This document shows positions 1-26,380 of a stretch of 64,000 nt of DNA, piece by piece. Source of the stretch: a virus; the IMG/VR virus record IMGVR_UViG_3300017917_002644, positions 1 through 64,000 of that record, one strand, 5' to 3'. Under the pieces are notes generated by a model. That model worked only from the letters and a program-made list of their open reading frames with translations, did no database searches and was not told where the DNA came from. Made by a program: the position numbers and the translations under genes. The first letter of the stretch is position 1. Every line of letters starts with the position of its first letter.

Positions 1-405
1 TGCAACGATTAGTTGTTCTTTTTTCTTTGGTAAGTTATATCCTTTAATCTGGTCTACCAATTTACCTAAAAATCTGTCAACTTGTGGAGGTAGGGTTACA
101 TCCATATCTTCCAACTCTTCGTTTACATTTTCTTTAACAACTTTAGGTAAGTAAGTTGCACCACTATACCATTTTTTTTCAATTTTATGTTCTTTACCTT
201 TTTCATCTTTAACAGTAAAGGTAGAAGGGTTTACTTTAACTACTTTTCCTTTTTTTGGTTGAGCACTTCTTCCAATATTTTGCAATTCTTTTTCTGCATA
301 AAATTTTATAGTATCACCAACATTTGCGTCAAGTGTTACATACCCTTCGTTTACTTTTTTCAAAGAACCCATATTTACGGGAATAAATTGTGTTAATTTT
401 GCCAT
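1..405 (-). CDS. Hypothetical head-module protein, truncated by the window edge (not in the ORF track)
   Basis: Manual translation from ATG at 405: MAKLTQFIPVNMGSLKKVNEGYVTL...KEQLIVA, open to position 1. Starts 7 nt after the protease stop and contains VNE/VKE motifs. Confidence 0.75.
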   Translation of the reverse strand, partial: MAKLTQFIPVNMGSLKKVNEGYVTLDANVGDTIKFYAEKELQNIGRSAQPKKGKVVKVNPSTFTVKDEKGKEHKIEKKWYSGATYLPKVVKENVNEELEDMDVTLPPQVDRFLGKLVDQIKGYNLPKKKEQLIVA

Positions 406-412
406 TTTTATT

Positions 413-1003
413 TTAGTTTAATTCAATTATAATTTCTCTCATTAAGTCTTGTGCTTTACAGAACTTACCACATTCTTCAGCAACTTTTTTCCATTGTTTA
501 GATTCGTTGATTGGTGCCATAAATGCTCCATGAGTTGATGGGTTTGATACAAAGTCCCAACCAACTAATTCAAAATCTTCCTGAACCATTACAGTACCAT
601 CTACCATCTCTTTTACTGAACCTAATCCTCTGGATGAAATACCTAAACGGATATTGTTTTTTAACAACTCTCTAAGAATGTTACCAGATGGAGTAGAAAG
701 GATTTCAACCGTTCCCATTACATCATCACCTTCCCACCAAATTTCTCTAATGTTGTGAGAAACGTTTTTAAGGTTGATAACCGGTGAATCCGGGTGGTCT
801 AATTCTCCCAATGCTCTTCTTTCTTTAATGAGTTGTTCGTATTTTTGGCACTCTCTCTCCAAAATATCTTTAGGGTATCTTCTATTATTTTGGTTTGGGG
901 CACCTGCTCTTTGTAGAACTCCCTTTACCAAATAAGTTCCATTAGATTCTTCTTGAAGTTTTGCTTCAAATAAGTGAGTTTCTATTAATAATCCTTTACT
1001 CAT
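413..1003 (-). CDS. gp21: Prohead core protein protease (T4 gp21-like)
   Basis: Motifs NxNxRxYP, ALGELDHP (His), LGISSRGLGS (Ser), WDFVSNPS (Asp); lies in the head module with the portal. Confidence 0.95.
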   Translation of the reverse strand: MSKGLLIETHLFEAKLQEESNGTYLVKGVLQRAGAPNQNNRRYPKDILERECQKYEQLIKERRALGELDHPDSPVINLKNVSHNIREIWWEGDDVMGTVEILSTPSGNILRELLKNNIRLGISSRGLGSVKEMVDGTVMVQEDFELVGWDFVSNPSTHGAFMAPINESKQWKKVAEECGKFCKAQDLMREIIIELN

Positions 1004-1419
1004 TATTTTATATCGTTTTTTGCTTTATATACTACTTTATCCATTATACTTTTGTCATTCCAAGATTTCAAAAGTATAGTTTTTAATTGGTTTGTCAATT
1101 CTGTTTTATCCAATTTACCATCGGAATTTCTAACTTCCTTTACTATATATATTTTAACATCGGTTAGATTTAATATTTTATCAACCGCATTGTTATCCAT
1201 TCCTTTATGCGTATCAACTATCTTTGATATCTTTTCAACAACCCCATCATCTTTGTATAGGTTTGTTATGATAGTTTTTACAGCACCTTTGTAATCACCC
1301 TTACCACTAAAATACTTAAATCCCTTCTCAATTAAATCTATTAAAAAATAATAGATAATATTACTAATAACTAAAGAACCAAATGCAGCAATTAAACCTA
1401 TTAGTAGGTTTTCATTTAC
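1003..1419 (-). CDS. Probable -1 frameshift extension of 1416..1727, with a transmembrane segment (track calls only 1003..1200)
   Basis: Frame is open from 1440 to 1003 with no ATG/GTG/TTG before 1200. Reads VNENLLIGLIAAFGSLVISNIIYYFLIDLIEKG...KGMDNNAVDK. Entered through the A10 run at 1420-1429. Confidence 0.6.
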   Translation of the reverse strand, partial: VNENLLIGLIAAFGSLVISNIIYYFLIDLIEKGFKYFSGKGDYKGAVKTIITNLYKDDGVVEKISKIVDTHKGMDNNAVDKILNLTDVKIYIVKEVRNSDGKLDKTELTNQLKTILLKSWNDKSIMDKVVYKAKNDIK

Positions 1420-1425
1420 TTTTTT
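1394..1425 (-). other. Candidate -1 ribosomal frameshift signal: A_AAA_AAG slippery site plus downstream hairpin
   Basis: CAA AAA AAA AAG TAA, then after a 7-nt spacer the stem AAACCTA-CTAA-TAGGTTT (1411-1394). Confidence 0.6.
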
Positions 1426-1727
1426 TTTTGAGCCTCGTTTTTACTTGCTCTTAATGCTGCTAAATCACTTGCCTCAATCTCACCATCTTTATCAACATCT
1501 ATTTTTTCTTGGTTTCCTGGTAGGTTTTCGTTATATCCTCTCAATCTACCTTCGGTTTTTGCTTTATATGCTTTATCAACTGCATTGAAAAATGCCTTTT
1601 TCTCATCATCACTCATAGAAGGTATAGATTTACCACTCTTATCCAACATAGTTTTGAATAATTGTTGGTAATCTTCTTCTTCTCTAACTACCTGTCTTAT
1701 AAGTTCTTTAAGTTGATTTACTTTCAT
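1416..1727 (-). CDS. Putative prohead core/internal protein
   Basis: N-terminal LKELIRQVVREE helix, YNE/KNE sites, EF-hand-like DVDKDGEIEASDL; lies between portal and protease. Confidence 0.6.
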   Translation of the reverse strand: MKVNQLKELIRQVVREEEDYQQLFKTMLDKSGKSIPSMSDDEKKAFFNAVDKAYKAKTEGRLRGYNENLPGNQEKIDVDKDGEIEASDLAALRASKNEAQKKK

Positions 1728-2734
1728 TATTGTGATATTTTACGAATTTGTTGTTCTAATCTAACCAATCTCTCTTTTATCTTATAAATATTACTATTAG
1801 TTCTTTTCCAGAAATTTTCGTTAGATACTCCATTTTCTTGCTTAATTCTACCATACCAATTTAGGAACTTTTCCATTTCGGCAAGTTGTTTATTGATGTT
1901 TGATATTCCCTTACCGATTTTAGTTGTAGCAGGTGCATCTTCTTTTTTAAGTTCAATCCAACGATTTTCTGTAACGATTACTTTATATTTAGAAGATTTG
2001 TTTTCGTTTACAACACTATATCCTGTCAAATCAGCTTGTCTTTTTCCCTTTTTCTTTTCGTTTTCAGGTTTTCCAAATGCATAAGGAGTATCATATGGTC
2101 CTGCTGCATCTGAAGTTGTCATCTCTTTAATAGATAATCCTAATTCTTCTTCAACCTCTTGGATTTCATCATAACCCATTGCGTGTAATTCTCTAACAAT
2201 ATCCAATCTACTTGCGTTTTTATCACCAGTTACTACGATTGCAACTTGTTTTCTTACAGAAGGAGTTCCGTTGTGATAATACTGCATCACTCTCTTAAAG
2301 TGTATATCACCACTACCCATTTCATCAATATCACCCTTTAGTTCGGCATCTTTATACAGACCACTAACTTTGGCATCTAATTCTGCTTGAAGTTTTTTCT
2401 TTAAGATTGTTAATTTTTTAAGAGCTTCGATGTGCTTTTTTTCTTCCGGAGTTCCTTTGGTTTTTTTGTATTGGTTTAAATGGTTTTCCATTGCATCCAA
2501 TACTTTAGAATACTCCGTATGGATTGTTTTAACTCCCCTTGCTTCTTTTACAATGATTTCTTTAATCTTATCAGGAAGTTCTTTATGTTTTGTTGATGCG
2601 AAATCTTTAGCAGATTTTTTATCCATATCTGCTGCTACTTTTGCAACTTCTGGAGATGGGGCTTCCATATCACCCTTTTGAGTAGCATGGACCATTCCCA
2701 TAAATTTCTGTTGTGCTTTACTTACCGCTGGCAT
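1727..2734 (-). CDS. Modular head-associated protein with DUF3008-like N-terminus
   Basis: Starts MPAVSKAQQKFMG; modules separated by VKE/IDE/IKE/VNE/VTE; C-terminal coiled coil. Confidence 0.55.
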   Translation of the reverse strand: MPAVSKAQQKFMGMVHATQKGDMEAPSPEVAKVAADMDKKSAKDFASTKHKELPDKIKEIIVKEARGVKTIHTEYSKVLDAMENHLNQYKKTKGTPEEKKHIEALKKLTILKKKLQAELDAKVSGLYKDAELKGDIDEMGSGDIHFKRVMQYYHNGTPSVRKQVAIVVTGDKNASRLDIVRELHAMGYDEIQEVEEELGLSIKEMTTSDAAGPYDTPYAFGKPENEKKKGKRQADLTGYSVVNENKSSKYKVIVTENRWIELKKEDAPATTKIGKGISNINKQLAEMEKFLNWYGRIKQENGVSNENFWKRTNSNIYKIKERLVRLEQQIRKISQ

Positions 2735-3590
2735 CTTTCAATTCTTTTAGTAGTTCATAAGACATCATAAGAGCAGATAAGTGTTGTTCTTTAATCTTTT
2801 TAACAGATTTAACCTTTCTAATGTTTGAGATTGTTTCTGCTAATTTGATTTTTGTTACTTTATCTGTTAATTTGGAACCTACTTCTTTTAATTGAGTAAT
2901 AATATTGGTTACAGATTTAGAAACATATTCGTTCAATTTACCTGTATTGTTGATATTATTGATATATTCTCTCAATAAAGATTTTTGTTCTACGGTAAGG
3001 TTTTTGTATTTTGTGTTAAAGTTTTCTACTAAAAACTTATAAGAAATTGCTCTTAAGTCTTCATCTTGCTTTCTGTATTCCTCCATAACTGCATCTTTGA
3101 TTTTTGCATCTTTATTTTGGATAGATGAATTGATAATATTTTCCGTAATTGTGAAACGAGAACTCACAATATCTGTCGGGTCAAATTGTTCTTGAGATGT
3201 TGTTACTTCAAATATTTTGTAAATTGAAGCCAACGCCTTATAGTTAGAAATTGGTGATTTAATAAAATCATCAATGTTATATGTTTCTTTAATTTCTTTA
3301 ATTAGATTGTATTTTTCTTTGGTAAGTTTTTTCTCATCCAATCTTTTTCTTGCTTCACAGATGGTATCAATAAACTTTTCGGCTTTAGCTTCCGAATTAT
3401 ATTTTTCGTTTACCAAATACTGATATAATTTTAATTCTTTAGATAATTCTCTTTTAGAATTGAAATGTTCTTTCAAAATCTTTTCTGCAACTGATTTATT
3501 TGATGACATGATTTCTGCTGTAATTTGTCTTACAAGCAACTCAAATATAAATCCTGTGTTTTTAAACTTTGAATGTTTTATTTTTTTCAT
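2718..3590 (-). CDS. Hypothetical helical protein next to the portal (probable head assembly protein)
   Basis: 290-aa ORF (ATG at 3590; track starts at TTG 3593), preceded by an ATATTTATA motif. Confidence 0.6.
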   Translation of the reverse strand: MKKIKHSKFKNTGFIFELLVRQITAEIMSSNKSVAEKILKEHFNSKRELSKELKLYQYLVNEKYNSEAKAEKFIDTICEARKRLDEKKLTKEKYNLIKEIKETYNIDDFIKSPISNYKALASIYKIFEVTTSQEQFDPTDIVSSRFTITENIINSSIQNKDAKIKDAVMEEYRKQDEDLRAISYKFLVENFNTKYKNLTVEQKSLLREYINNINNTGKLNEYVSKSVTNIITQLKEVGSKLTDKVTKIKLAETISNIRKVKSVKKIKEQHLSALMMSYELLKELKDASGK

Positions 3591-3612
3591 CAATTTGTGT
3601 AGTTTTGTTAGA

Positions 3613-3621
3613 TATAAATAT
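3613..3621 (-). promoter_or_regulatory. Putative phage late promoter ATATTTATA
   Basis: Recurrent intergenic motif, 22 nt upstream of ATG 3590. Confidence 0.6.
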
Positions 3622-3638
3622 ATCTTTATATTACTTTA

Positions 3639-5384
3639 TTACTTTTTTGTTAAATCTTCGGTTAAAATAGTTTTTTTGTTACCATTCATATCCTTAAATA
3701 CCTCTAAATAAGTATTCATTCTTGGTTTGTATTTTACAGAACCTTCTCTTTGTTTTAAGGTTTTAATACCCAATGGGTCTCTACCTTCTGGATGGTCATC
3801 TTTACCGTATCTAACCGGGTCTTTAGGTCTACCAACTTTTCCTTCTTCTTCTAATTCGTTTTTAATTTTTTCGATTTCTTCTTCTACGTTAGTTGGTGCT
3901 TCTGTACCCGTTTCGTTTGCAGGGTCTATACCTTGCGTTTCAATTGATGTTAAACGGAACATTTGTTTAGTATCATCCAACACTTGCAATGTCATATCGT
4001 TTTGCTCATCTTCCGCCATTCCCATAATAGATTCGTACATCCATTCTTTAGAGAACATCTTTGTTTGTTGCATTTGTTGGATTAGTTGAACTTTTGAGTT
4101 ATACAATTCAACTTTTTCTTGTTCGTATATTTTTGATGGAATTGTTAATTCTAAACTGAAATCGGTTAAACGGTCATCATCAATACCTTGTGCATATAGG
4201 TGAACGATTGCAATTTTTGTTAATTCTGAAATTAATACTCTTTGTATTCTTTCGATTGTTTTTGCAAATCTAATATCCTGTGATGCTAAAGTTGCTTTAC
4301 CATTAACATCCTCTTCATATCCCATATATGCTTTTGGTATCTTTAATGATGCCATTAACTTACCTTTTAGATAGTTTAGGTCATCAATCATATTGTACTC
4401 CAATCCTTTTAGAGTATCAATTGATGTTCCGTTATCACTACCCCTTACTGGCATATAGTAATCCTCAATAAGGTTTTGTATATTATATTTTAAGTTATAT
4501 TCACCTGTTCTTTCATCAACAAATGGAACTTTTTTAGAGTTATTGATAATCTTTTGCATGTAGTTATCCACTTCGTTTGGTGGAATGTTACCCACATCTA
4601 CCTTAAATATCCTCTTTTCAGGTGCTCTCATCACTCTGTGAATTAACATTGCATCTTCCATCAACATTAATTGTTTCCAAACTCTTCTACCGCCTTCAAT
4701 CATAGATTTTCCGTAAGGTAGGAAGTTTGAGTCGGAGTTCAAACGGAAGTGTGCCATTTCATAGTTCTCAAACTCTTTCTTTGCAGATTGAGATGCCGCA
4801 CCGTATGGGTTTTGATAAGGAGCGTATAAGAACTTTACTCTTTGTGGGTTTTCTGGATCAAATTGTTCAACTCTACTCATCTCATAACAAGACATTGGCA
4901 TCACATTCACAATACCCAATTTGTCTGCTATTTCTAATTGTAAAAAGAAATCTCCGTATTTAACTAAGTTTCTTGTCCAAGGCCAAAGATTGAACTCTAA
5001 GTTTAGGATATCAAAGAAAAGGTTTTCTAAGATTTGTTTTACGTTATCGTCTGCATGATGGATTTTAAGAACACTACCCATTTCGTTTCTTGCAGTACAT
5101 TCATCTGCATATACATCTAATGCCGATGAAAGGATAGGGTCAGTATCCATTGAATCGTAATCTCTAAATAAGTCAATACGAACTTGTTGGTATGCCATAG
5201 AAGACTCTGCGGCTCCATTTCCATAGTTTGTAACTTTTAATTTCATAAACCTATCAACGAGGTTTGTAGTCATATTCTGATATTCATCAGTATCTACGAC
5301 CTTTACTCCGGTTGCGGTTTTACGAACTATGGTGTTTGTTGAAAATAATTTTTGTAACCTACCGAATATTGATTTATCTGCCAT
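3639..5384 (-). CDS. gp20: Portal vertex protein (T4 gp20-like)
   Basis: QLMLMEDAMLIHRVMRAPEKRIFKVDVGNIP, EDYYMPVRG, TSIDTLKG, DIRFAKTIERIQ. Confidence 0.95.
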   Translation of the reverse strand: MADKSIFGRLQKLFSTNTIVRKTATGVKVVDTDEYQNMTTNLVDRFMKLKVTNYGNGAAESSMAYQQVRIDLFRDYDSMDTDPILSSALDVYADECTARNEMGSVLKIHHADDNVKQILENLFFDILNLEFNLWPWTRNLVKYGDFFLQLEIADKLGIVNVMPMSCYEMSRVEQFDPENPQRVKFLYAPYQNPYGAASQSAKKEFENYEMAHFRLNSDSNFLPYGKSMIEGGRRVWKQLMLMEDAMLIHRVMRAPEKRIFKVDVGNIPPNEVDNYMQKIINNSKKVPFVDERTGEYNLKYNIQNLIEDYYMPVRGSDNGTSIDTLKGLEYNMIDDLNYLKGKLMASLKIPKAYMGYEEDVNGKATLASQDIRFAKTIERIQRVLISELTKIAIVHLYAQGIDDDRLTDFSLELTIPSKIYEQEKVELYNSKVQLIQQMQQTKMFSKEWMYESIMGMAEDEQNDMTLQVLDDTKQMFRLTSIETQGIDPANETGTEAPTNVEEEIEKIKNELEEEGKVGRPKDPVRYGKDDHPEGRDPLGIKTLKQREGSVKYKPRMNTYLEVFKDMNGNKKTILTEDLTKK

Positions 5385-5406
5385 TTCTTATTTCTATATG
5401 TTTTAA

Positions 5407-5438
5407 CAAAGATACGAAAATTATTTGATTTTTCCAAA
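5407..5438 (-). promoter_or_regulatory. Bacteroidota sigmaA-type promoter (-33 TTTG, -7 TAnnTTTG) upstream of portal
   Basis: TTTG(5438-5435)-N20-TATCTTTG(5414-5407). Confidence 0.75.
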
Positions 5439-5465
5439 TAACTTACTCACTATCAATGAATTATA

Positions 5466-6515
5466 TTACCACTTTCTGCAAGACCAGTATCTTGCTTTCC
5501 ATCTTGGACCTGGATTATCACAATTGTGTCTTGCTCTGAAACTTCTTCTTCTATCTGGATTTGATTTTTTAATTTTAACACCTTTTTGTCCAAAATTTAC
5601 TTTAACAACATTACCTTTGTCGTTTTTAACATAAACTTTGAATTTTTTAACATCACCTGCCATTGGTTTTCCCAATTTCACTTTTCTACCCTGATACTCT
5701 GCTTCTAATAAACAAGGACAAGTTGCTTCGCTTAATTGTTTGTTGTATTCTTTCATAAAAATGATGAAATCTTTTACATCATCTTCGTTTTCTACATCGT
5801 ATTCTATTGGTTCAACATATCCGTATTCTACCTCATCATCTGCATCTCTCAAATTTGGATGATTTGGATATTCATCTTCTTCAGAAATTTGGTTTAATAG
5901 TTTTTCGTATTCTGATTTAGGTGCTGGGGTTCTTTTTTGTAATTGTTGAACAATTTCTTTCCATGCATCATCGTATCTTTTTTTATCAGTAGGTGGTAAT
6001 TGTCTTTTTAAGAAATATATGAAACTCATTATTTCCGATTTATCTTCTTTCCACCACTTAGACATATCTGGAAAGTTTTCATTTATATTTTCATTTACAG
6101 GAACACAATTTGGAACCATTTTATCTCCTTTTTCTTTCATTCCAACTTGTTTGTACCCATCCCAACAAGATTCACATAATCCGTTGGTATCTCCCTCATT
6201 ACAAGTTCTCCAACCACCACCCTTAGATTTGTAGTTTTTTGCTGCCCATCCGTTTGCGTATGCAGATGGATATACATCGAATTTTCTTTTAGCCGCTGCT
6301 TTAGAAGCAGACCATTTACCAGGGTCAGTTGGACAATTTTTTTCTAAGAATAAATTGATACGTTCTTCAATGTTGTTCAAAATTTTCATATTTTCGTTCT
6401 TTTTTCTACCTTGACAATGTGCTCTTTGTGAAAAACCTTTTGGATTGTTACAATTAATGGAGTTTTTATATTTTTGACTCCATTTTTCATTTATTGTATC
6501 AGATAGCTTTATCAT
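5466..6515 (-). CDS. Modular basic internal head protein with several small Cys/Trp/Lys-rich modules
   Basis: Leader MIKLSDTINE; modules KWSQKY..CNNPKGFSQRAHC, FDVYPSAYANG, CWDGY..VPNCVP and AEYQGRKV..RYWSCRKW, separated by x-x-E sites. Confidence 0.6.
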   Translation of the reverse strand: MIKLSDTINEKWSQKYKNSINCNNPKGFSQRAHCQGRKKNENMKILNNIEERINLFLEKNCPTDPGKWSASKAAAKRKFDVYPSAYANGWAAKNYKSKGGGWRTCNEGDTNGLCESCWDGYKQVGMKEKGDKMVPNCVPVNENINENFPDMSKWWKEDKSEIMSFIYFLKRQLPPTDKKRYDDAWKEIVQQLQKRTPAPKSEYEKLLNQISEEDEYPNHPNLRDADDEVEYGYVEPIEYDVENEDDVKDFIIFMKEYNKQLSEATCPCLLEAEYQGRKVKLGKPMAGDVKKFKVYVKNDKGNVVKVNFGQKGVKIKKSNPDRRRSFRARHNCDNPGPRWKARYWSCRKW

Positions 6516-6814
6516 TACGCTCCTGTTTTTACAAATGTTGGTTTTTGTCCTTTTGATTTTTCTCCACCTTTTTTAGCATCTCCTGCTTTATTTTGTGCTG
6601 CTCTTTTTCTTTTTACAAATGCCGCTCTACCATCTTTTCCTAATTTTGCAGCTTTTGCGTTTGATAAACATGCTGCATAAGATGAACCTTTTTTAGAGTC
6701 TCCACACTTACCTACCTTTTCACCTTTGGAATTGTATCTATCCCAACCACCAGTTGGTCCACTACCGAACCACTTTCTAAGGTCTTCATCCAAAAGGTCA
6801 ATTAATCTTATCAT
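6515..6814 (-). CDS. Small basic internal head protein (start revised from 6865 to 6814)
   Basis: MIRLIDLLDE leader then DLRKWFG..CG..YAACL; the track's upstream extension overlaps terL and the promoter motif. Confidence 0.65.
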   Translation of the reverse strand: MIRLIDLLDEDLRKWFGSGPTGGWDRYNSKGEKVGKCGDSKKGSSYAACLSNAKAAKLGKDGRAAFVKRKRAAQNKAGDAKKGGEKSKGQKPTFVKTGA

Positions 6815-9808: not shown

Positions 9809-12800
9809 TTAATAAAAAAGACCCAATATTTGATTTAGTGGTGCAAAGGTACCTGTAAGTTTATAAGTGTTTCCTTTATAAACAAATACAATACCTTCAT
9901 TTGGAACTATCCTATCTTTACCACCTAAACTATTTAATCTTTCTAATTCTTGTTTTAATTTTGCAATTAAAGATTTATCACCACTTTGCCTAACTCTTTC
10001 TGCGGTTGATTTTAATCTATCTTTCATTGAACGAATTGCAGCATTAGGATTTGCTGTAAGAACTGAACTCATAAAGGATAATACATCTGCTCCAACTCCT
10101 AAAAATATTTCCTCAAAAGGTTTAATATTTGTTTTTTGTTGTTTCATTACATCAACTTTATCGGTTTCAATTGCCCACTTTTTAATATCCTCATCACTTA
10201 TACTTGCTAATCTAAAAGATTTCTCACCAAATGCCCATCTTCTTACCAATGCTTCTTTTGTAAGTTTATCTACTACCTTTGGAGATTTTTTATCTACAAA
10301 ATCTTCCCACCATTTTTGATGATATAATGCAACTGTATCTCCATCACTCAAACGAAATTCATTTTGTAATTTTGATAATTTAGATAAGTATTTGCTCTGT
10401 TTAGAACCCAATTCTTCATTCTTTGGTAATTCGGTTACAGGAGGTCCTTGTATTGTGTATTTAGATTGAACATCTGCATTTACCTGCTTTATCATTCCTG
10501 CTAATACTCTTGCTGCTGATTGGTCAGAACCTACTGCATTTCCTTTTTCATCATAACAAGTTGTATTGTGAAATACTAATAGTGCTTGTCCATAAGGAAT
10601 AACGTTTACAGATGTTGGCCAGATAACCTCCAAATTCATAAAACATTGTCCTTCGTTGAATATTTTTTGTCTTTGTTTTTCTGAAAGTGATTGGATTGCT
10701 GCCGATAGGTCTTTCATTGCAAAATTGTATGCATCGGTTAAACCACCTCTACCCCCAAACTTTGATGCAACACCTTCAATTCCCATTGCGTTTGCTCCCG
10801 CATTTGCAAGGTGTCCTTTGTTTCTTGCCGCAATCAATCTACCATTTTTCCAACTGATTGCCAATGCCTGTCCATCTGTTTTTTCTCTTGTCAATTCCAA
10901 CTCACCATTTAATGCTCCTGTGATAATGTTTTTCAGGTCACCAAATGTTAAATCCATATCATCAAATGGGTGTGCCATATGTCCATATGCACCACCTTCG
11001 TTTAATATTCCTTCTTTAAGACTTCTTTTTTGTAGAACTAATTTGTTTATGTCTGAAAATAAATCAGCAATTTCTTTATCCAATTTCTTTTCATCCGCAC
11101 TCATTGGTGATTCTATATCCACATTGGAGTATAGTTTTTTCTTTTTTGCCACCAATACATCTACCCTTTTAAGTAAATCGTTTTTTACTTTATCTAAATC
11201 TTTTATAATTTCTTCTTTAGATGTTTCGTTTAAGTTTTTATTTGCAGGTTGATTATCATATCCACAAACGTGACAGATATACATCGCGTTTCCACCTTCT
11301 GCTTTATACCATTCATGTCCACAATTATCACAAATTATCATCCCACCCTCATCTGCTGAATTGGATTTTACTTCTGCTTCGTTAAATGCAGATGGAACTT
11401 TTATTTTTGTCCAACCTCCCCAACGAAATATTCTTGATGGTATTGGTAAGGTAGAACCAATTGGTAATTTATGTTGATATTTTTTATCTATACCAACTAC
11501 TTTGGTAACATAGTTTCTGTTTTTATTATCTGCACCAATCAATTCAACTTCAACCTCAACTTCGTTTCCACCGATTTTCATTTTACCCTTAAAGAAACCT
11601 TTGTTAATTTCTTCAATTTTTCTAAATGTAGTTGCTTGTTTTCCGTTGATTGTTGGCATCCCATGCTGGTCTTTACCAATATCTTTTACGGTAGTTTTTT
11701 TGTTCTTAAACTTACCCATAAGGATTTCATCACCCCTATCTATATCCAAAGTAATATCCTCTTTGTTTATTTCAATTGCTGCTAACTGTCTTTTTGCAGA
11801 TGCTAACGATGAATGTGTTCCTAATCTCTTACCACCATTTTTTGGATAAACTACATAATCATCACCAACTTTTTTAATAGTTTCTGTGTAGATTTGTTTG
11901 TTTAATTTTCCGTAATCTCTTAAAAGAATACCTGCTAATGCATTTGCCTGATTTTCAACAGGTGAACCAGTCTTACCCGCTTCTTCCTCATTTCTAATTA
12001 ACTTCATCTCATCCTGCTTTCTGTGAACCATTTCGTGTGCAATAGTTCTTAGGATATCTGCCGTTAATCTTCCACTCGTTACTACAAAAATCTCTTTAGT
12101 TAGTGGAGAATATCCACCCAACGATGGTTGTTCTCTATCTAACTCATTATCCTTTAATAAAACTACTTTTGGTTTTTCGTTTAGTTTTAATCTTTTTGTA
12201 GCGTATTCTATAAAGTGTTGTATATTTTGTGCTTTTGACGGAGAAAGGTTTTCATTTAGAGAACCAAATAGAGAACTCAATTCTCCTTTATCTTTTTCTT
12301 TTTTGTAATCAACAACTGCTTTTTTCAATTGTTCATCACTCAACTCATAGGTTTCCATTTTTTCGGCAACCTTTTTAAGAACATTATTTACAAAATCAGT
12401 TCCACCCGCAATCTCCAATAATCCCATAGATGCAGTTGCCAAACCTGCCCCACCAATCGCAGCCTGTTTAGCTCCCAATCCTAATGTTTCTAATGTTGCG
12501 TGTTTTGCTATATCTTTTGCAAGGTGTGCACTGAACCCACCAACTCCATGTGTAAATACACCTGCTGCACCACTACCTGCTGCCGCAAATGTTCCACCCA
12601 AACTCGCACCCGCATTTACTGCTTTAATAGCAGCTGCTCCCGCACCACCCAATGCCATAGAACCCATTATTAATGCAGTATCAACAGCAAAATGTTTTAA
12701 ATGATGTATTTGTTCTTTTCTTTTTTCTTCTGAATATTCCCACTTACCCGTTTCTTTGTTTTTAGTAGAACCGATTTTTTGTCCGTTTGCTAATGCCCAA

Positions 12801-14293
12801 ACCGCTTCACCGGAACCTTTAACCATTTCCTTTTTATTATCTGCCCACTGTTTAATACCTTTACCGAATTTTTCTAATCCGGATTTGATATTATCCACCA
12901 TTCCTTTTCTTGCTTTTGAACCTGGTTTGTGTTCTCCGTTTGATATAAATTCTCTATCTTCTTTATCTAATGTTTTTACAACATTCATCAAACTTTCTTT
13001 TGCCTTTTCTTTTTCTTTTGCATGTTCTGCTGATGATTTTAACTCCGCACCTTTTAGGGTTTGTGGTTGGGGTTGTCCTTCTCCACCTTTATCACTACCA
13101 CCATCTTTTGGAGTTTTATCAACTTTACCTTGTTGAGTTTGTCCTTTTTGCACAGGTTGTCCCTTTTGTGGTGGTTCAGGTTTCTTTTCAGGTGCAGGTT
13201 TTATTGGTTGTGCAACATTTTGTGTAAGTTTCTTTGCCTGAATATGTGCCTCGTGGTCAGCAGGTAATCTCAATGCACCTCTTACAGTGATTTTCTTTTT
13301 TTGACCATCTTTTGCAGTATATGTAAGTTCCTTATCGTAAATAGGATTCTGTGGTGCATTTTCCGGTTGTTCGTTTAAGTAATTTGCTATAAAATGATTA
13401 AAATCATTTTCCGTAATTGCATTTGCTATAATTTCCGCAATTGGGTCATACGGTGCCATATTACCATCAAATGCATCTTCTTCTTCTGCAGGGTGTTCTA
13501 TTTGATGACGGGTTGGGTGTGGTTCTGGTCTCAATTTTGATGGTGGGTTTGTATTTACACTTTCGTTTGCCGAACCAGTTGGTGCACCATTGATATATCC
13601 ACCAGGTAGAACTAACCCAGTTCCAATTCCACCAGGAAATCCTTCTGTGTTTAAGTCCTCATCATCAATTACATTTATCTTATCAAAACTTCCTGCCATT
13701 CCTGTTGGAAAACCTGTTCCGGCTTCGTTTAATTTATTTTTAATCATTTGGTAAATTTCATCATCAAACTTTGGATATATTTTCTTAAAGAAATCTTTCG
13801 CTTTCTTTTCATCCGCACCCTTAAAGTTTGTTCTAACATCTGTTCCACTTATTGGGTTAGGTTCTGCAGGAACTGCGTAAACATATCCAATCTCATCATA
13901 TCCATACCCAGCTTTACCTTTATATGGTTTAAAGTATTTACCGGTCAATCTACTCGCATCTTTTTCACCAACGGCTGCTACATATTGTGTAGTTTTACCA
14001 TCGTATTTATCCAATATTTCTTTTGGTGCGTATGGATTTTTGATTTGAACAAATTTATCAGCAGGAACTCCAAATATTTTTGTTGCTATTTTTTTCTTTT
14101 CTTCGAAATTAAATGGTGATTTTCCACCATCGGTAACATTGGATGTTCCAATATAAACATTATCTCTACCAAATTTGGAAACCAATTTTTGATATGAAAT
14201 AAAATGCCCCTTATGAAAAGGTTGAAAACGACCTGAATATACTACAATCGTTTTTTTAACTTCCGGCTTATCTACTTCTAATTTTAATTTCAT
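9809..14293 (-). CDS. 1494-aa multidomain polyprotein: HxGH nucleotidyltransferase, Gly/Ala hydrophobic region, HEXXH zincin, Zn ribbon, KxDG ligase-like domain
   Basis: GRFQPFHKGH; IAHEMVHRKQ; CDNC..CHVC; EGGAYGHMAHP, EKTDG, EGIV, YKLTG; domain boundaries fall at LNE/LLE/FNE. Confidence 0.75.
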   Translation of the reverse strand: MKLKLEVDKPEVKKTIVVYSGRFQPFHKGHFISYQKLVSKFGRDNVYIGTSNVTDGGKSPFNFEEKKKIATKIFGVPADKFVQIKNPYAPKEILDKYDGKTTQYVAAVGEKDASRLTGKYFKPYKGKAGYGYDEIGYVYAVPAEPNPISGTDVRTNFKGADEKKAKDFFKKIYPKFDDEIYQMIKNKLNEAGTGFPTGMAGSFDKINVIDDEDLNTEGFPGGIGTGLVLPGGYINGAPTGSANESVNTNPPSKLRPEPHPTRHQIEHPAEEEDAFDGNMAPYDPIAEIIANAITENDFNHFIANYLNEQPENAPQNPIYDKELTYTAKDGQKKKITVRGALRLPADHEAHIQAKKLTQNVAQPIKPAPEKKPEPPQKGQPVQKGQTQQGKVDKTPKDGGSDKGGEGQPQPQTLKGAELKSSAEHAKEKEKAKESLMNVVKTLDKEDREFISNGEHKPGSKARKGMVDNIKSGLEKFGKGIKQWADNKKEMVKGSGEAVWALANGQKIGSTKNKETGKWEYSEEKRKEQIHHLKHFAVDTALIMGSMALGGAGAAAIKAVNAGASLGGTFAAAGSGAAGVFTHGVGGFSAHLAKDIAKHATLETLGLGAKQAAIGGAGLATASMGLLEIAGGTDFVNNVLKKVAEKMETYELSDEQLKKAVVDYKKEKDKGELSSLFGSLNENLSPSKAQNIQHFIEYATKRLKLNEKPKVVLLKDNELDREQPSLGGYSPLTKEIFVVTSGRLTADILRTIAHEMVHRKQDEMKLIRNEEEAGKTGSPVENQANALAGILLRDYGKLNKQIYTETIKKVGDDYVVYPKNGGKRLGTHSSLASAKRQLAAIEINKEDITLDIDRGDEILMGKFKNKKTTVKDIGKDQHGMPTINGKQATTFRKIEEINKGFFKGKMKIGGNEVEVEVELIGADNKNRNYVTKVVGIDKKYQHKLPIGSTLPIPSRIFRWGGWTKIKVPSAFNEAEVKSNSADEGGMIICDNCGHEWYKAEGGNAMYICHVCGYDNQPANKNLNETSKEEIIKDLDKVKNDLLKRVDVLVAKKKKLYSNVDIESPMSADEKKLDKEIADLFSDINKLVLQKRSLKEGILNEGGAYGHMAHPFDDMDLTFGDLKNIITGALNGELELTREKTDGQALAISWKNGRLIAARNKGHLANAGANAMGIEGVASKFGGRGGLTDAYNFAMKDLSAAIQSLSEKQRQKIFNEGQCFMNLEVIWPTSVNVIPYGQALLVFHNTTCYDEKGNAVGSDQSAARVLAGMIKQVNADVQSKYTIQGPPVTELPKNEELGSKQSKYLSKLSKLQNEFRLSDGDTVALYHQKWWEDFVDKKSPKVVDKLTKEALVRRWAFGEKSFRLASISDEDIKKWAIETDKVDVMKQQKTNIKPFEEIFLGVGADVLSFMSSVLTANPNAAIRSMKDRLKSTAERVRQSGDKSLIAKLKQELERLNSLGGKDRIVPNEGIVFVYKGNTYKLTGTFAPLNQILGLFY

Positions 14294-25616: not shown

Positions 25617-25622
25617 TCTCAT
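24666..25622 (-). CDS. Putative glycosyltransferase-like paralogue
   Basis: MRIAVCFSGQIR, FIHTW, YDYVIKLRTD, IDD. Confidence 0.6.
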   Translation of the reverse strand: MRIAVCFSGQIRTGVEASENLLRFIGDLFPYTDFFIHTWDVETKKNYNATRIISKPTELKQSTIDDIIKVYNPKKIVVENWNTVSKIDNESIAGFTLKQLIPPMWYSLSKSMEYKKEYEIQNNFEYDYVIKLRTDIIFPPIRNLKTEIELGNFKNTPNLYIENRQQIINTDVHFIDDVYFISNSKNMNIVGDYYYNLRNNININNFSKGWPFGYGLPRYLIENNINIIENNLYAEYAGIDYKYSIYRNECLHLSPLEEFEKCWLCDDYYFGASGNKPHSGKFFVQDLKLTHQVEDNIEDIFGGDFYYIDEIPKNKNLI

Positions 25623-26380
25623 AATAAATGTGTATCAAATGGTGAAATATTTTGTTCTAAATGATAATCTCTATATATGTAAAGTTTATTTTTTTCAAAC
25701 CCACTTACTCTTATATTAAATTTATCTAAATATTCTTTAGAATGAATTTGCCAATCAACCGCTATTTTTTGAATATTTGTTTCCCTTTCTAATAAAAAAT
25801 CACACATTATATCCATAATTTTTGATGAAGAAATCCAACATATGTCTTCTATTTGTGTTGGTAATTTATTCCAATAATCACAAGTATAAAACAACATTTT
25901 ATCTTTCATACAGTGTTCTATTTCAGATAACAAAGTATGTCCGTTCTCATATACAACATCAAATCTCATCCTAATTACAAAATCATATTCAATTTTATTT
26001 TGTTTTTCATAATTAATTTTTAATTGATTACATTCGTAAATACTATGAAACATTGGTATTAAACCGGCTATAAGTCCATTGTTTTCTTTTATTATTTTTT
26101 TTTCTCTATATTTTTTATATTCTTCTACACTATCAATTCTAATATTTTTTGGTTTATATATTTTTTTTATTTTTTCAATTTTGTAAGGATTTACAACAAA
26201 TATATCGTTGATAACGGATTTATCTCTCCCATTTAATGCGTGTAAAGATATAGTTTCTGTATTCCAAGTGTGAATAAAAAAATCAGTATATGGTAATAAC
26301 TCACCTATAAATCTTAATATGTTTGGAGAAACTTCTATACCTGTTCTAATTTGACCACTTAAACAAACGGCAATTCTCAT
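25619..26380 (-). CDS. Putative glycosyltransferase-like paralogue
   Basis: MRIAVCLSGQIR, FIHTW, YDFVIRMRFD, IED. Confidence 0.6.
   Translation of the reverse strand: MRIAVCLSGQIRTGIEVSPNILRFIGELLPYTDFFIHTWNTETISLHALNGRDKSVINDIFVVNPYKIEKIKKIYKPKNIRIDSVEEYKKYREKKIIKENNGLIAGLIPMFHSIYECNQLKINYEKQNKIEYDFVIRMRFDVVYENGHTLLSEIEHCMKDKMLFYTCDYWNKLPTQIEDICWISSSKIMDIMCDFLLERETNIQKIAVDWQIHSKEYLDKFNIRVSGFEKNKLYIYRDYHLEQNISPFDTHLL

Follow-up and report, generated by a model that had tools for sequence, protein, structure and literature searches.

How is an open reading frame (ORF) of 138 codons translated when it has no start codon of its own? This question is raised by the T4-type head module of an uncultured T4-like phage from IMG/VR (record IMGVR_UViG_3300017917_002644), a contig of 74.6 kb whose first 64 kb we analysed (the window; the completeness estimate is about 39%). 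There, a small gene for a protein of 103 residues, p103 (1416..1727; all coordinates of this module are on the minus strand), is followed by an ORF in the -1 frame (1003..1422, 138 aa after a slip) that extends to the gene for a gp21-like prohead protease. The two ORFs meet at a run of ten A's, a G and a stop codon. Judging from sequence comparison, it is highly probable that this A10G-TAA junction is a functional programmed -1 recoding site, by which two proteins are made from one expression unit. We regard the site as real because an A-run of 9 to 12 nucleotides, the -1 ORF and the adjacent stop are conserved together, because the ORF evolves under purifying selection, and because relatives exist in which both parts are fused in frame. 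A sequence-only reading of the window had proposed just such a joining of the two ORFs at the A-run, and the conserved signal, stop and frame, together with the fused orthologues, bear this out.

The layout of the junction can be read directly in the window. The 3' end of p103 reads GCT CAA AAA AAA AAG TAA, with the ten A's at 1429-1420 and the G at 1419 (slippery run 1419..1429), so that the heptamer A_AAA_AAG stands in the zero-frame phase (C AA|A AA|A AA|A AG). The zero-frame stop TAA (1416..1418) adjoins the run on its 3' side; this 'shifty stop' is reportedly a classical arrangement that goes back to Weiss et al. in 1987. The -1 frame is closed upstream by a TAA at 1443-1441 and is then open until the TAA at 1005-1003, which overlaps the ATG of the protease gene as TAATG, and its first ATG, GTG or TTG is the ATG at 1200. 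The shifted product would have 103 + 138 = 241 aa, with the joint ...AQKKK-VNE-NLLIGLIAAFGSLVISNIIYYFLI.... The p103 end, the limits of the -1 frame, its lack of a start until 1200 and the size and joint of the shifted product had all been given in the sequence-only reading, and on the minus strand they are correct.

An open frame of this length is not expected by chance. The off-frames of the DNA in the junction region contain 14-16 stops per 100 codons, and at this density a frame of 138 open codons would have a probability of about 1e-10 by our own arithmetic. The A10 is also the only homopolymer of at least 10 within the 64-kb window, and homopolymers of at least 9 are under-represented there (2 observed, roughly 4-19 expected under Markov models of order 1-6). 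This avoidance of long A-runs elsewhere in the genome suggests that such runs do slip in this host. The other run of 9, an A9 on the minus strand at 26095-26103, lies inside a 253-aa GT-like ORF (25619-26380, ...REKKIIKE...), and no obvious alternative-frame ORF follows it.

Is this arrangement a peculiarity of one genome? Queried with the sequences of p103 and the protease, viral contigs yielded 160 related loci, and 92 distinct junctions remained after the removal of duplicates: 37 are of the shift type (window included), 44 are without the downstream ORF, 2 are fused and 9 carry other inserts. A later scan of contigs added 2 further distinct shift-type loci, 39 in total. Wherever the downstream ORF is present at a shift-type junction, alignment of the orthologous loci finds the open -1 frame retained behind a slippery run with its neighbouring stop (37/37), as one would expect from the sequence-only reading. 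The run is A9 in 1 locus, A10 in 23, A11 in 12 and A12 in 1; it ends 0-3 nt ahead of TAA or TAG in every case, and A_AAA_AAG or A_AAA_AAA in the zero-frame phase is found in all 37. At the 44 junctions where p103 abuts the protease directly, the longest A-run near the stop is only 3-7 in each case (44/44). In a tree built from the protease gene, the two types of locus are interleaved, thus the run and the ORF have been gained or lost together, repeatedly.

The conservation is concentrated on the run itself. An alignment of 34 junctions has a mean column identity of 68%, and the A-run is its only long invariant block, with 8 A's invariant and 2 more at least 90% conserved; differences in run length among the loci stem from flanking substitutions and not from indels. 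Synonymous divergence (dS) between shift-type loci reaches 1-2. Elsewhere in these genes there are 16 Lys-Lys-Lys triplets, and each of them has its run of A's broken by AAG. At the junction, AAG is the final zero-frame codon of 32 of the 37 loci, and the codon 5' to the heptamer is always CAA, GAA or AAA, which end in AA, and never a G-ending synonym. The adjacent stop is formed by an NTA codon of the -1 frame in all 37 loci; this statistic was partly circular as first computed, and its usable form is that the stop is always adjacent despite a use of NTA elsewhere of 47% (GTA and ATA each make up 47% of the Val or Ile codons).

In some loci the upstream gene is longer. Homologues of p103 with extra modules of about 70 aa, placed after the EF-hand-like loop described below or between it and the N-domain, retain the ending with A-run and stop (L007:1123-1641, L046:2066-2581 and L081:64-579; L021:735-1244 and L029:2108-2581), which means that the upstream gene is modular and the slip site is fixed. 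A different situation is seen in L145, L147, L149, L155 and L156, where the p103 homologue and the protease are about 870-885 nt apart and an unrelated insert of about 290 aa, starting with TAATTATG, lies between them.

The pattern of substitutions indicates that the -1 ORF is translated and is under purifying selection, including the part that precedes any conserved start. Its median pairwise ratio of nonsynonymous to synonymous substitution (dN/dS) is 0.30 (597 pairs), and the first 45 codons, which make up this part, give 0.35. Indeed, across the shift-type loci the first ATG, GTG or TTG in the -1 frame comes as early as +11 nt and as late as +218 nt past the stop, and the ATG within the TAAATG at the junction lies in another frame and does not occur in loci of the TAG-TTA type. 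Public gene calls for this ORF begin at arbitrary internal codons (LIDLIEKG..., MIEKG..., and also P0005-P0007).

Orthologues that are fused in frame argue that the joined protein occurs naturally. In the two fused loci, L131 (205 aa) and L071 (211 aa), the N-domain of p103 and the downstream protein form one ORF in the same slot, and an exhaustive profile search returned 70 representatives of the family at 50% identity, of which about 12 are fused (205-217 aa); in these fused forms, the C-terminal two-thirds matches the downstream ORF. One of them, P0028, is known as a protein and reads ...GYNENNQKKKINESVFIG... in a single frame, and its NQKKKINESVF is almost identical to the predicted joint AQKKKVNENLL. 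There is no A-run at the joint of L131. L071 is without the EF-hand segment, and its joint differs from those of the shift-type loci. The contig of L071, which also carries L165, has an unbroken in-frame A9 at this fusion joint (2558-2572, TCT AAA AAA AAA GGT). Read by hand, a slip there meets a stop within 2-4 codons in both directions (AGG TAA in the -1 frame, ...GTA AAT TGA in the +1 frame); slippage either way would thus give a truncated N-domain product beside the long one, a dnaX-like mirror image of the window.

More distant members of the family are stand-alone genes with their own ATG, and they encode a short leader that ends in x-N-E directly before the hydrophobic helix (MKKNKKNINE-, MQKKLVIKLNE- and MIKLKSILIEVMKKKSVNE-). 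The short basic leaders of P0010, P0011, P0051 and P0068, which end in x-N-E, resemble the capsid-targeting sequences (CTS) of T4. The leader of P0010 begins with MIKL, as does the leader MIKLSDTINE of a 349-aa ORF at 6515 of the window.

We propose that recoding at the junction would proceed in the following way. Standard decoding would end at the TAA and give p103, with its N-domain and EF-hand loop. In a fraction of expression events, a -1 shift within the A-run would give a 241-aa protein in which p103 is followed by KKK-VNE, the hydrophobic helix and a helical domain, and the downstream ORF, which is without its own start, would be made only through this shift. On the ribosomal route, tRNA-Lys would re-pair from AAG/AAA to AAA on A_AAA_AAG, the slow decoding of the adjacent stop would assist, and RNA structure would not be needed. 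On the transcriptional route, RNA polymerase would insert one additional A as it transcribes the run (at least 9 A's), which leads to the same protein. Ribosome sliding on poly-A is a possible third contributor.

Does RNA structure stimulate the shift? A 7-bp hairpin (AAACCTA-CTAA-TAGGTTT, 1394..1411) does exist in the window, 7 nt past the heptamer, and in the sequence-only reading it served as a stimulator of the dnaX type. Here that reading did not hold, and we reject the hairpin in this role. It has only 2 G-C pairs, and the 81 nt of its region fold no better than shuffled sequences (z = -0.42). RNAalifold finds 0 conserved pairs on the junction alignment, and across the homologues the window hairpin is paired in 61% of the cells, compared with 65% in column shuffles, with 0 compensatory changes.

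Several points weigh against the proposal as we have framed it. No Shine-Dalgarno (SD)-like element stands at a consistent place across the junction alignment; with neither a conserved 3' structure nor a placed SD-like element, the classical high-efficiency stimulation of the dnaX type is absent. The A's beyond the heptamer are conserved, with at least 9 in all shift-type loci, and tandem ribosomal slippage needs fewer. A phage-encoded tRNA-Lys that might tune the slippage was looked for, but the 64-kb window has no tRNA genes. As to processing of the joined protein, the candidate cleavage motif is short and common; and since the gene family has no characterised member, all functional statements rest on context.

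Which machine slips is a question within recoding, and here we favour the ribosome only slightly over RNA polymerase; the two routes are inseparable with these data and both may contribute. The predominance of AAG as the last zero-frame codon and the stop kept adjacent to it count in favour of a ribosomal component, and A_AAA_AAG is the most shift-prone heptamer in Escherichia coli (PMC5009743). That the shift is mainly transcriptional, with the polymerase adding an A to a fraction of the mRNAs on the A10 (template T10) and normal translation then giving the fusion, is a mechanistic variant of our proposal and not a rival to it, and we give it a substantial though minority probability. The conservation of the extra A's points towards transcriptional slippage or ribosome sliding, as every shift-type locus goes beyond the 7 nt of a ribosomal site; the constant AA-ending codon 5' of the heptamer, the lack of conserved RNA structure and the avoidance of long runs elsewhere in the genome fit the same variant. 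Nine is, moreover, the length from which many bacteria show selection against runs prone to slip, and insertion sequence (IS) elements use A9 for such slippage (PMC1088944). Polymerases of AT-rich organisms may, however, tolerate such runs (PMC1088944), and slippage by the polymerase leaves the predominance of G after the run and the strict adjacency of the stop unexplained, unless both are by-products of the Val/Ile-x-Glu coding of the -1 frame.

Explanations that dispense with recoding fare far worse. The downstream ORF might be translated independently, from a non-canonical start or by termination and reinitiation after the p103 stop, the A-run being an unstructured A-rich enhancer of initiation in the Bacteroidetes style. 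Hosts of the Bacteroidetes type initiate without SD sequences, the nearest cultured relatives by portal protein include Flavobacterium phages (about 48% identity), the distant homologues stand alone with their own ATG, and the neighbouring genes are all coupled through TAATG. We nevertheless consider such translation very improbable, as the vicinity of the junction has no in-frame ATG, GTG or TTG and the first such codon moves about from locus to locus, the out-of-frame ATG of TAAATG is not even present in all loci, and purifying selection acts from the joint onward, including on an invariant Glu three codons in; the in-frame fused orthologues also speak against it. A replication-level switch is of similarly small probability: slippage on the DNA of the run would create a mixed phage population, as in phase variation, and the fusion would come from its in-frame part. 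Tracts of A10-A12 are hypermutable, and close relatives include both fused and split forms. The -1 phase is, however, common to every one of the 39 shift-type loci as assembled; L131 and L071 are not simple derivatives with one A added, the former having no A-run at its joint and the latter having another joint and no EF-hand segment; and a lytic phage would need both products in each infected cell if stoichiometry matters. Least credible of all is an assembly or sequencing indel in the homopolymer, or a recent inactivating frameshift of a once-fused gene with a decaying pseudogene downstream. Homopolymers are error-prone, and fused forms exist that could differ by run length alone; P0028 has QKKKINE in frame. 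The comparative data have already largely refuted this reading: the same out-of-frame layout recurs in the 39 distinct loci from many independent metagenome assemblies, the run length varies by flanking substitutions rather than indels, and the ORF, still intact, shows purifying selection even where divergence has reached saturation.

Programmed recoding thus remains our preferred reading, and it can be compared with known systems. With the -1 frameshifting of E. coli dnaX and of IS3 and IS911, the junction shares the heptamer in phase, products with a common N-terminus and conservation of the site among homologues. Unlike in these systems, no 3' hairpin or pseudoknot is conserved, an upstream SD-like element at a fixed place is lacking, the run has 9-12 A's, and the zero-frame stop is directly adjacent; furthermore, the shift lengthens the product here and shortens it in dnaX. 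Known sites of transcriptional slippage include the A9 of Thermus thermophilus dnaX, A9 runs of IS elements and Shigella mxiE and spa13 (PMC1088944; PMC5009743). For such sites, Baranov et al. 2005 look for an overlap organisation and a run that are conserved in diverged homologues (PMC1088944). A run of at least 9 A or T conserved together with the ORF organisation is what we find, with A9-A12 in all 37 loci; as at those sites, the homopolymer lies in an ORF overlap, diverged homologues keep both the run and the organisation, and RNA structure is not needed. It differs from them in the conserved G and the adjacent stop and in its place in a phage head-assembly module, and it is known here from DNA, while heterogeneity of the mRNA is the feature of those systems.

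Frameshifts in structural genes of phages are known from the lambda G/GT tail chaperone, T7 and T3 10A/10B, and the capsid extensions of Lactobacillus phage A2 and Listeria phages. As proposed here, the window would resemble them in that one gene pair gives a fixed ratio, minority or majority, of a short and a C-terminally extended assembly protein. It differs in that the genes lie upstream of a T4-type prohead protease, that an entire protein of 138 aa with a hydrophobic helix is added rather than an immunoglobulin-like decoration or chaperone domain, and that the joint holds a putative protease site. In the retroviral and totiviral Gag-Pol system, a -1 frameshift fuses a protein to a capsid component for packaging, and proteolytic release follows (PMC5009743). 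To Gag-Pol there is an analogy of the proposed logic only; the proteins are unrelated, and in our case packaging and cleavage would be the steps in common.

The closest positional counterpart is found in T4, where genes 67 and 68 are two small genes directly upstream of a gp21-type protease (80 and 141 aa in T4, 103 and 138 aa here). The p103 pair lies between the portal and gp21-type protease genes as T4 67/68 do, with 291-aa and 335-aa ORFs intervening after the portal. Homology to gp67 or gp68 was tried and rejected, with hhalign probabilities of 0.1 (gp67) and 0.2 (gp68) and no PHROG or Pfam match. In T4, the two genes are joined by an ordinary TAATG overlap without a slippery run, and the gp67 and gp68 sequences have no obvious hydrophobic stretch, unlike the downstream ORF here.

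What kinds of protein are joined? p103 has a conserved N-domain of two helices (residues 1-67), followed by a 12-residue EF-hand- or dockerin-like loop of the Ca-binding type, DVDKDGEIEASD (residues 77-88; 1464..1499), and an alignment of 24 sequences has 25 invariant columns. In the loop, the pattern D-x-D-x-D-G-x-I-x-x-x-D is directly readable and nearly invariant. Pfam Dockerin_1 matches the loop at E=0.0013, below the curated cutoff, and profile matches in the PDB are to the EF-hands of CaBP1 and calmodulin (E=7e-4 to 1e-2). The loop hardly varies among junctions of the shift type and those at which p103 abuts the protease; the fused forms and L116 do not have it. Otherwise p103 matches only a PHROG of unknown function (E=5e-4). 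Relatives of its N-domain (about 60 aa, ...DYQQLFK.ML...SMSD.EKKKFF.AVDKAYKAK.EG) with 40-60% identity occur in many marine metagenome contigs from TARA and others (L251-L324); the N-domain is far more widespread than the downstream ORF.

The downstream ORF consists of a linker with the motif, a hydrophobic helix and a helical C-terminal domain of about 100 aa. It has no match in Pfam or PHROG, and a profile of it matched nothing among the PDB sequences. In the window, the motif is V-N-E (GTA AAT GAA, 1411..1419), a candidate cleavage site of the gp21 type, and the helix is LLIGLIAAFGSLVISNIIYYFLI (1339..1407), defined by Kyte-Doolittle hydropathy and a structural model of L131. The Glu of [VIL]-[ND]-E is invariant in all 27 split and fused homologues, where it is one of only six invariant columns, and in all 13 in-frame fused forms. 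The Kyte-Doolittle maximum over 19 residues is 2.16 in the window and at least 1.98 in each of the 27 homologues, above the threshold for a transmembrane (TM) helix; most homologues have one internal Lys in the helix, and the 241-aa fusion has no signal peptide. That an [LIV]-x-E site stands directly before a helix of TM type, as the sequence-only reading had it, thus holds for the homologues as well. An AlphaFold2 model of the fused L131 (mean predicted local distance difference test, pLDDT, of 80) shows the two-helix N-domain, a linker, one long helix and a helical bundle. The motif falls in the low-confidence linker (pLDDT about 55-58), the hydrophobic helix covers residues 71-99, and the bundle is well predicted. 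A fold search with this model gave no match in the PDB at E<=0.001, and in BFVD only another uncharacterised fused homologue.

The module in which the pair is embedded is a T4-type head module on the minus strand, in the order portal, 291-aa and 335-aa ORFs, p103, the region studied and the gp21-like protease. The portal gene (3639-5384, minus strand) matches Pfam Portal_T4 (E=5e-70), and is separated from p103 by the 291-aa and 335-aa ORFs, on the same strand. The prohead serine protease (Peptidase_S77; 413..1003, minus strand) matches PF03420 (E=2.3e-31) and phrog_207 (E=3e-56). Overlaps of stop and start as TAATG join the neighbours, namely the 335-aa ORF and p103 (1725-1729) and the -1 ORF and the protease (1000-1006), and the junction of p103 with the -1 ORF is the sole one of the module without a start in the right frame. 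By portal protein, the nearest cultured relatives are Microcystis phage Mel-JY01 and Flavobacterium phage immuto (about 48-49% identity), whose slot holds other, ordinary-looking small genes. A tblastn search with p103 or the downstream ORF against 50,697 GenBank phage records gave no match. In a scan for sigma-70 promoters around the junction, matches were no commoner than in shuffled sequence; T4-type late promoters were not scanned.

Why would a phage join these proteins? By its synteny with T4 genes 67/68, p103 is a putative prohead core protein. Through its N-domain, the protein with the hydrophobic helix would reach the prohead core, or the membrane site where the prohead is assembled, and the frequency of the slip would fix the ratio. 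The gp21-like protease of the neighbouring gene would then cut in the flexible joint, after the invariant Glu of [VIL]-[ND]-E. The level and efficiency of the slip and the location of the products belong to this proposal, and we infer the cleavage at VNE, as well as a membrane tethering, as parts of it. The processing step draws support from the invariant Glu, the position in a linker (pLDDT about 55), the enrichment of [LIV]NE in the head module and the CTS-like leaders of the stand-alone relatives. The motif occurs 3.6 times per 1000 aa in head-module ORFs compared with 1.2 elsewhere (small numbers), and its recurrence across these ORFs is consistent with a shared protease motif. Within the head module (1-6814 and 9809-14293, minus strand), [LIV]-N-E is found as KKVNEG and NVNEE in the partial ORF 1-405, as VVNEN in the 335-aa ORF, as PVNENINEN in the 349-aa ORF and six times in a 1494-aa ORF. 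The internal proteins of T4 carry a capsid-targeting sequence that is cut by gp21 at (L/I)-x-E. The x-x-E motif here, and the short leaders ending in x-N-E of the stand-alone homologues, are like these proteins; together with the frequency of [LIV]NE, the invariant x-x-E and the leaders fit a protein that its N-terminal part takes to the prohead and that is a substrate of the gp21-type protease.

The role of the hydrophobic helix may take several forms. It could equally be a membrane anchor, a packaged and perhaps ejected membrane-active protein, or a segment buried in an (oligomeric) core. Use of the fusion to package a cargo protein is at least as likely as membrane tethering. In T4, a separate membrane protein, gp40, links the prohead to the inner membrane. 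It is conceivable, if rather unlikely in this full form, that a clade of uncultured T4-like phages uses a Gag-Pol-like strategy, in which the slip adds a membrane-active single-helix protein at a fixed ratio and the head protease frees it, after which it either tethers the prohead to the membrane (the role of gp40 in T4) or is packaged and ejected onto the membrane of the next host. If this were true, in-frame fusion, a short leader like the T4 CTS and frameshifting would be three interchangeable delivery devices for one cargo.

Our limited literature searches found no report of a recoding event in the prohead-core/protease module of T4-type phages. Very probably, the conserved A10 and stop let part of a small head-assembly protein run on into a protein with a membrane-type helix, a textbook signal in an undescribed use. 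In hundreds of metagenomic contigs of T4-like phages, this gene pair is annotated wrongly by gene callers, which cut the downstream protein short at arbitrary internal codons or miss it, and recognition of the recoding site corrects this. A run of 9-12 A's with an adjacent stop and without RNA structure is also a compact system in which to tell ribosomal slippage, slippage of RNA polymerase and poly-A sliding apart. For the T4-like phages that carry this family, the occurrence of one protein as a frameshift fusion, as an in-frame fusion and as a stand-alone gene with an x-N-E leader amounts to a natural experiment on the delivery and the ratio of cargo or anchor proteins in proheads.

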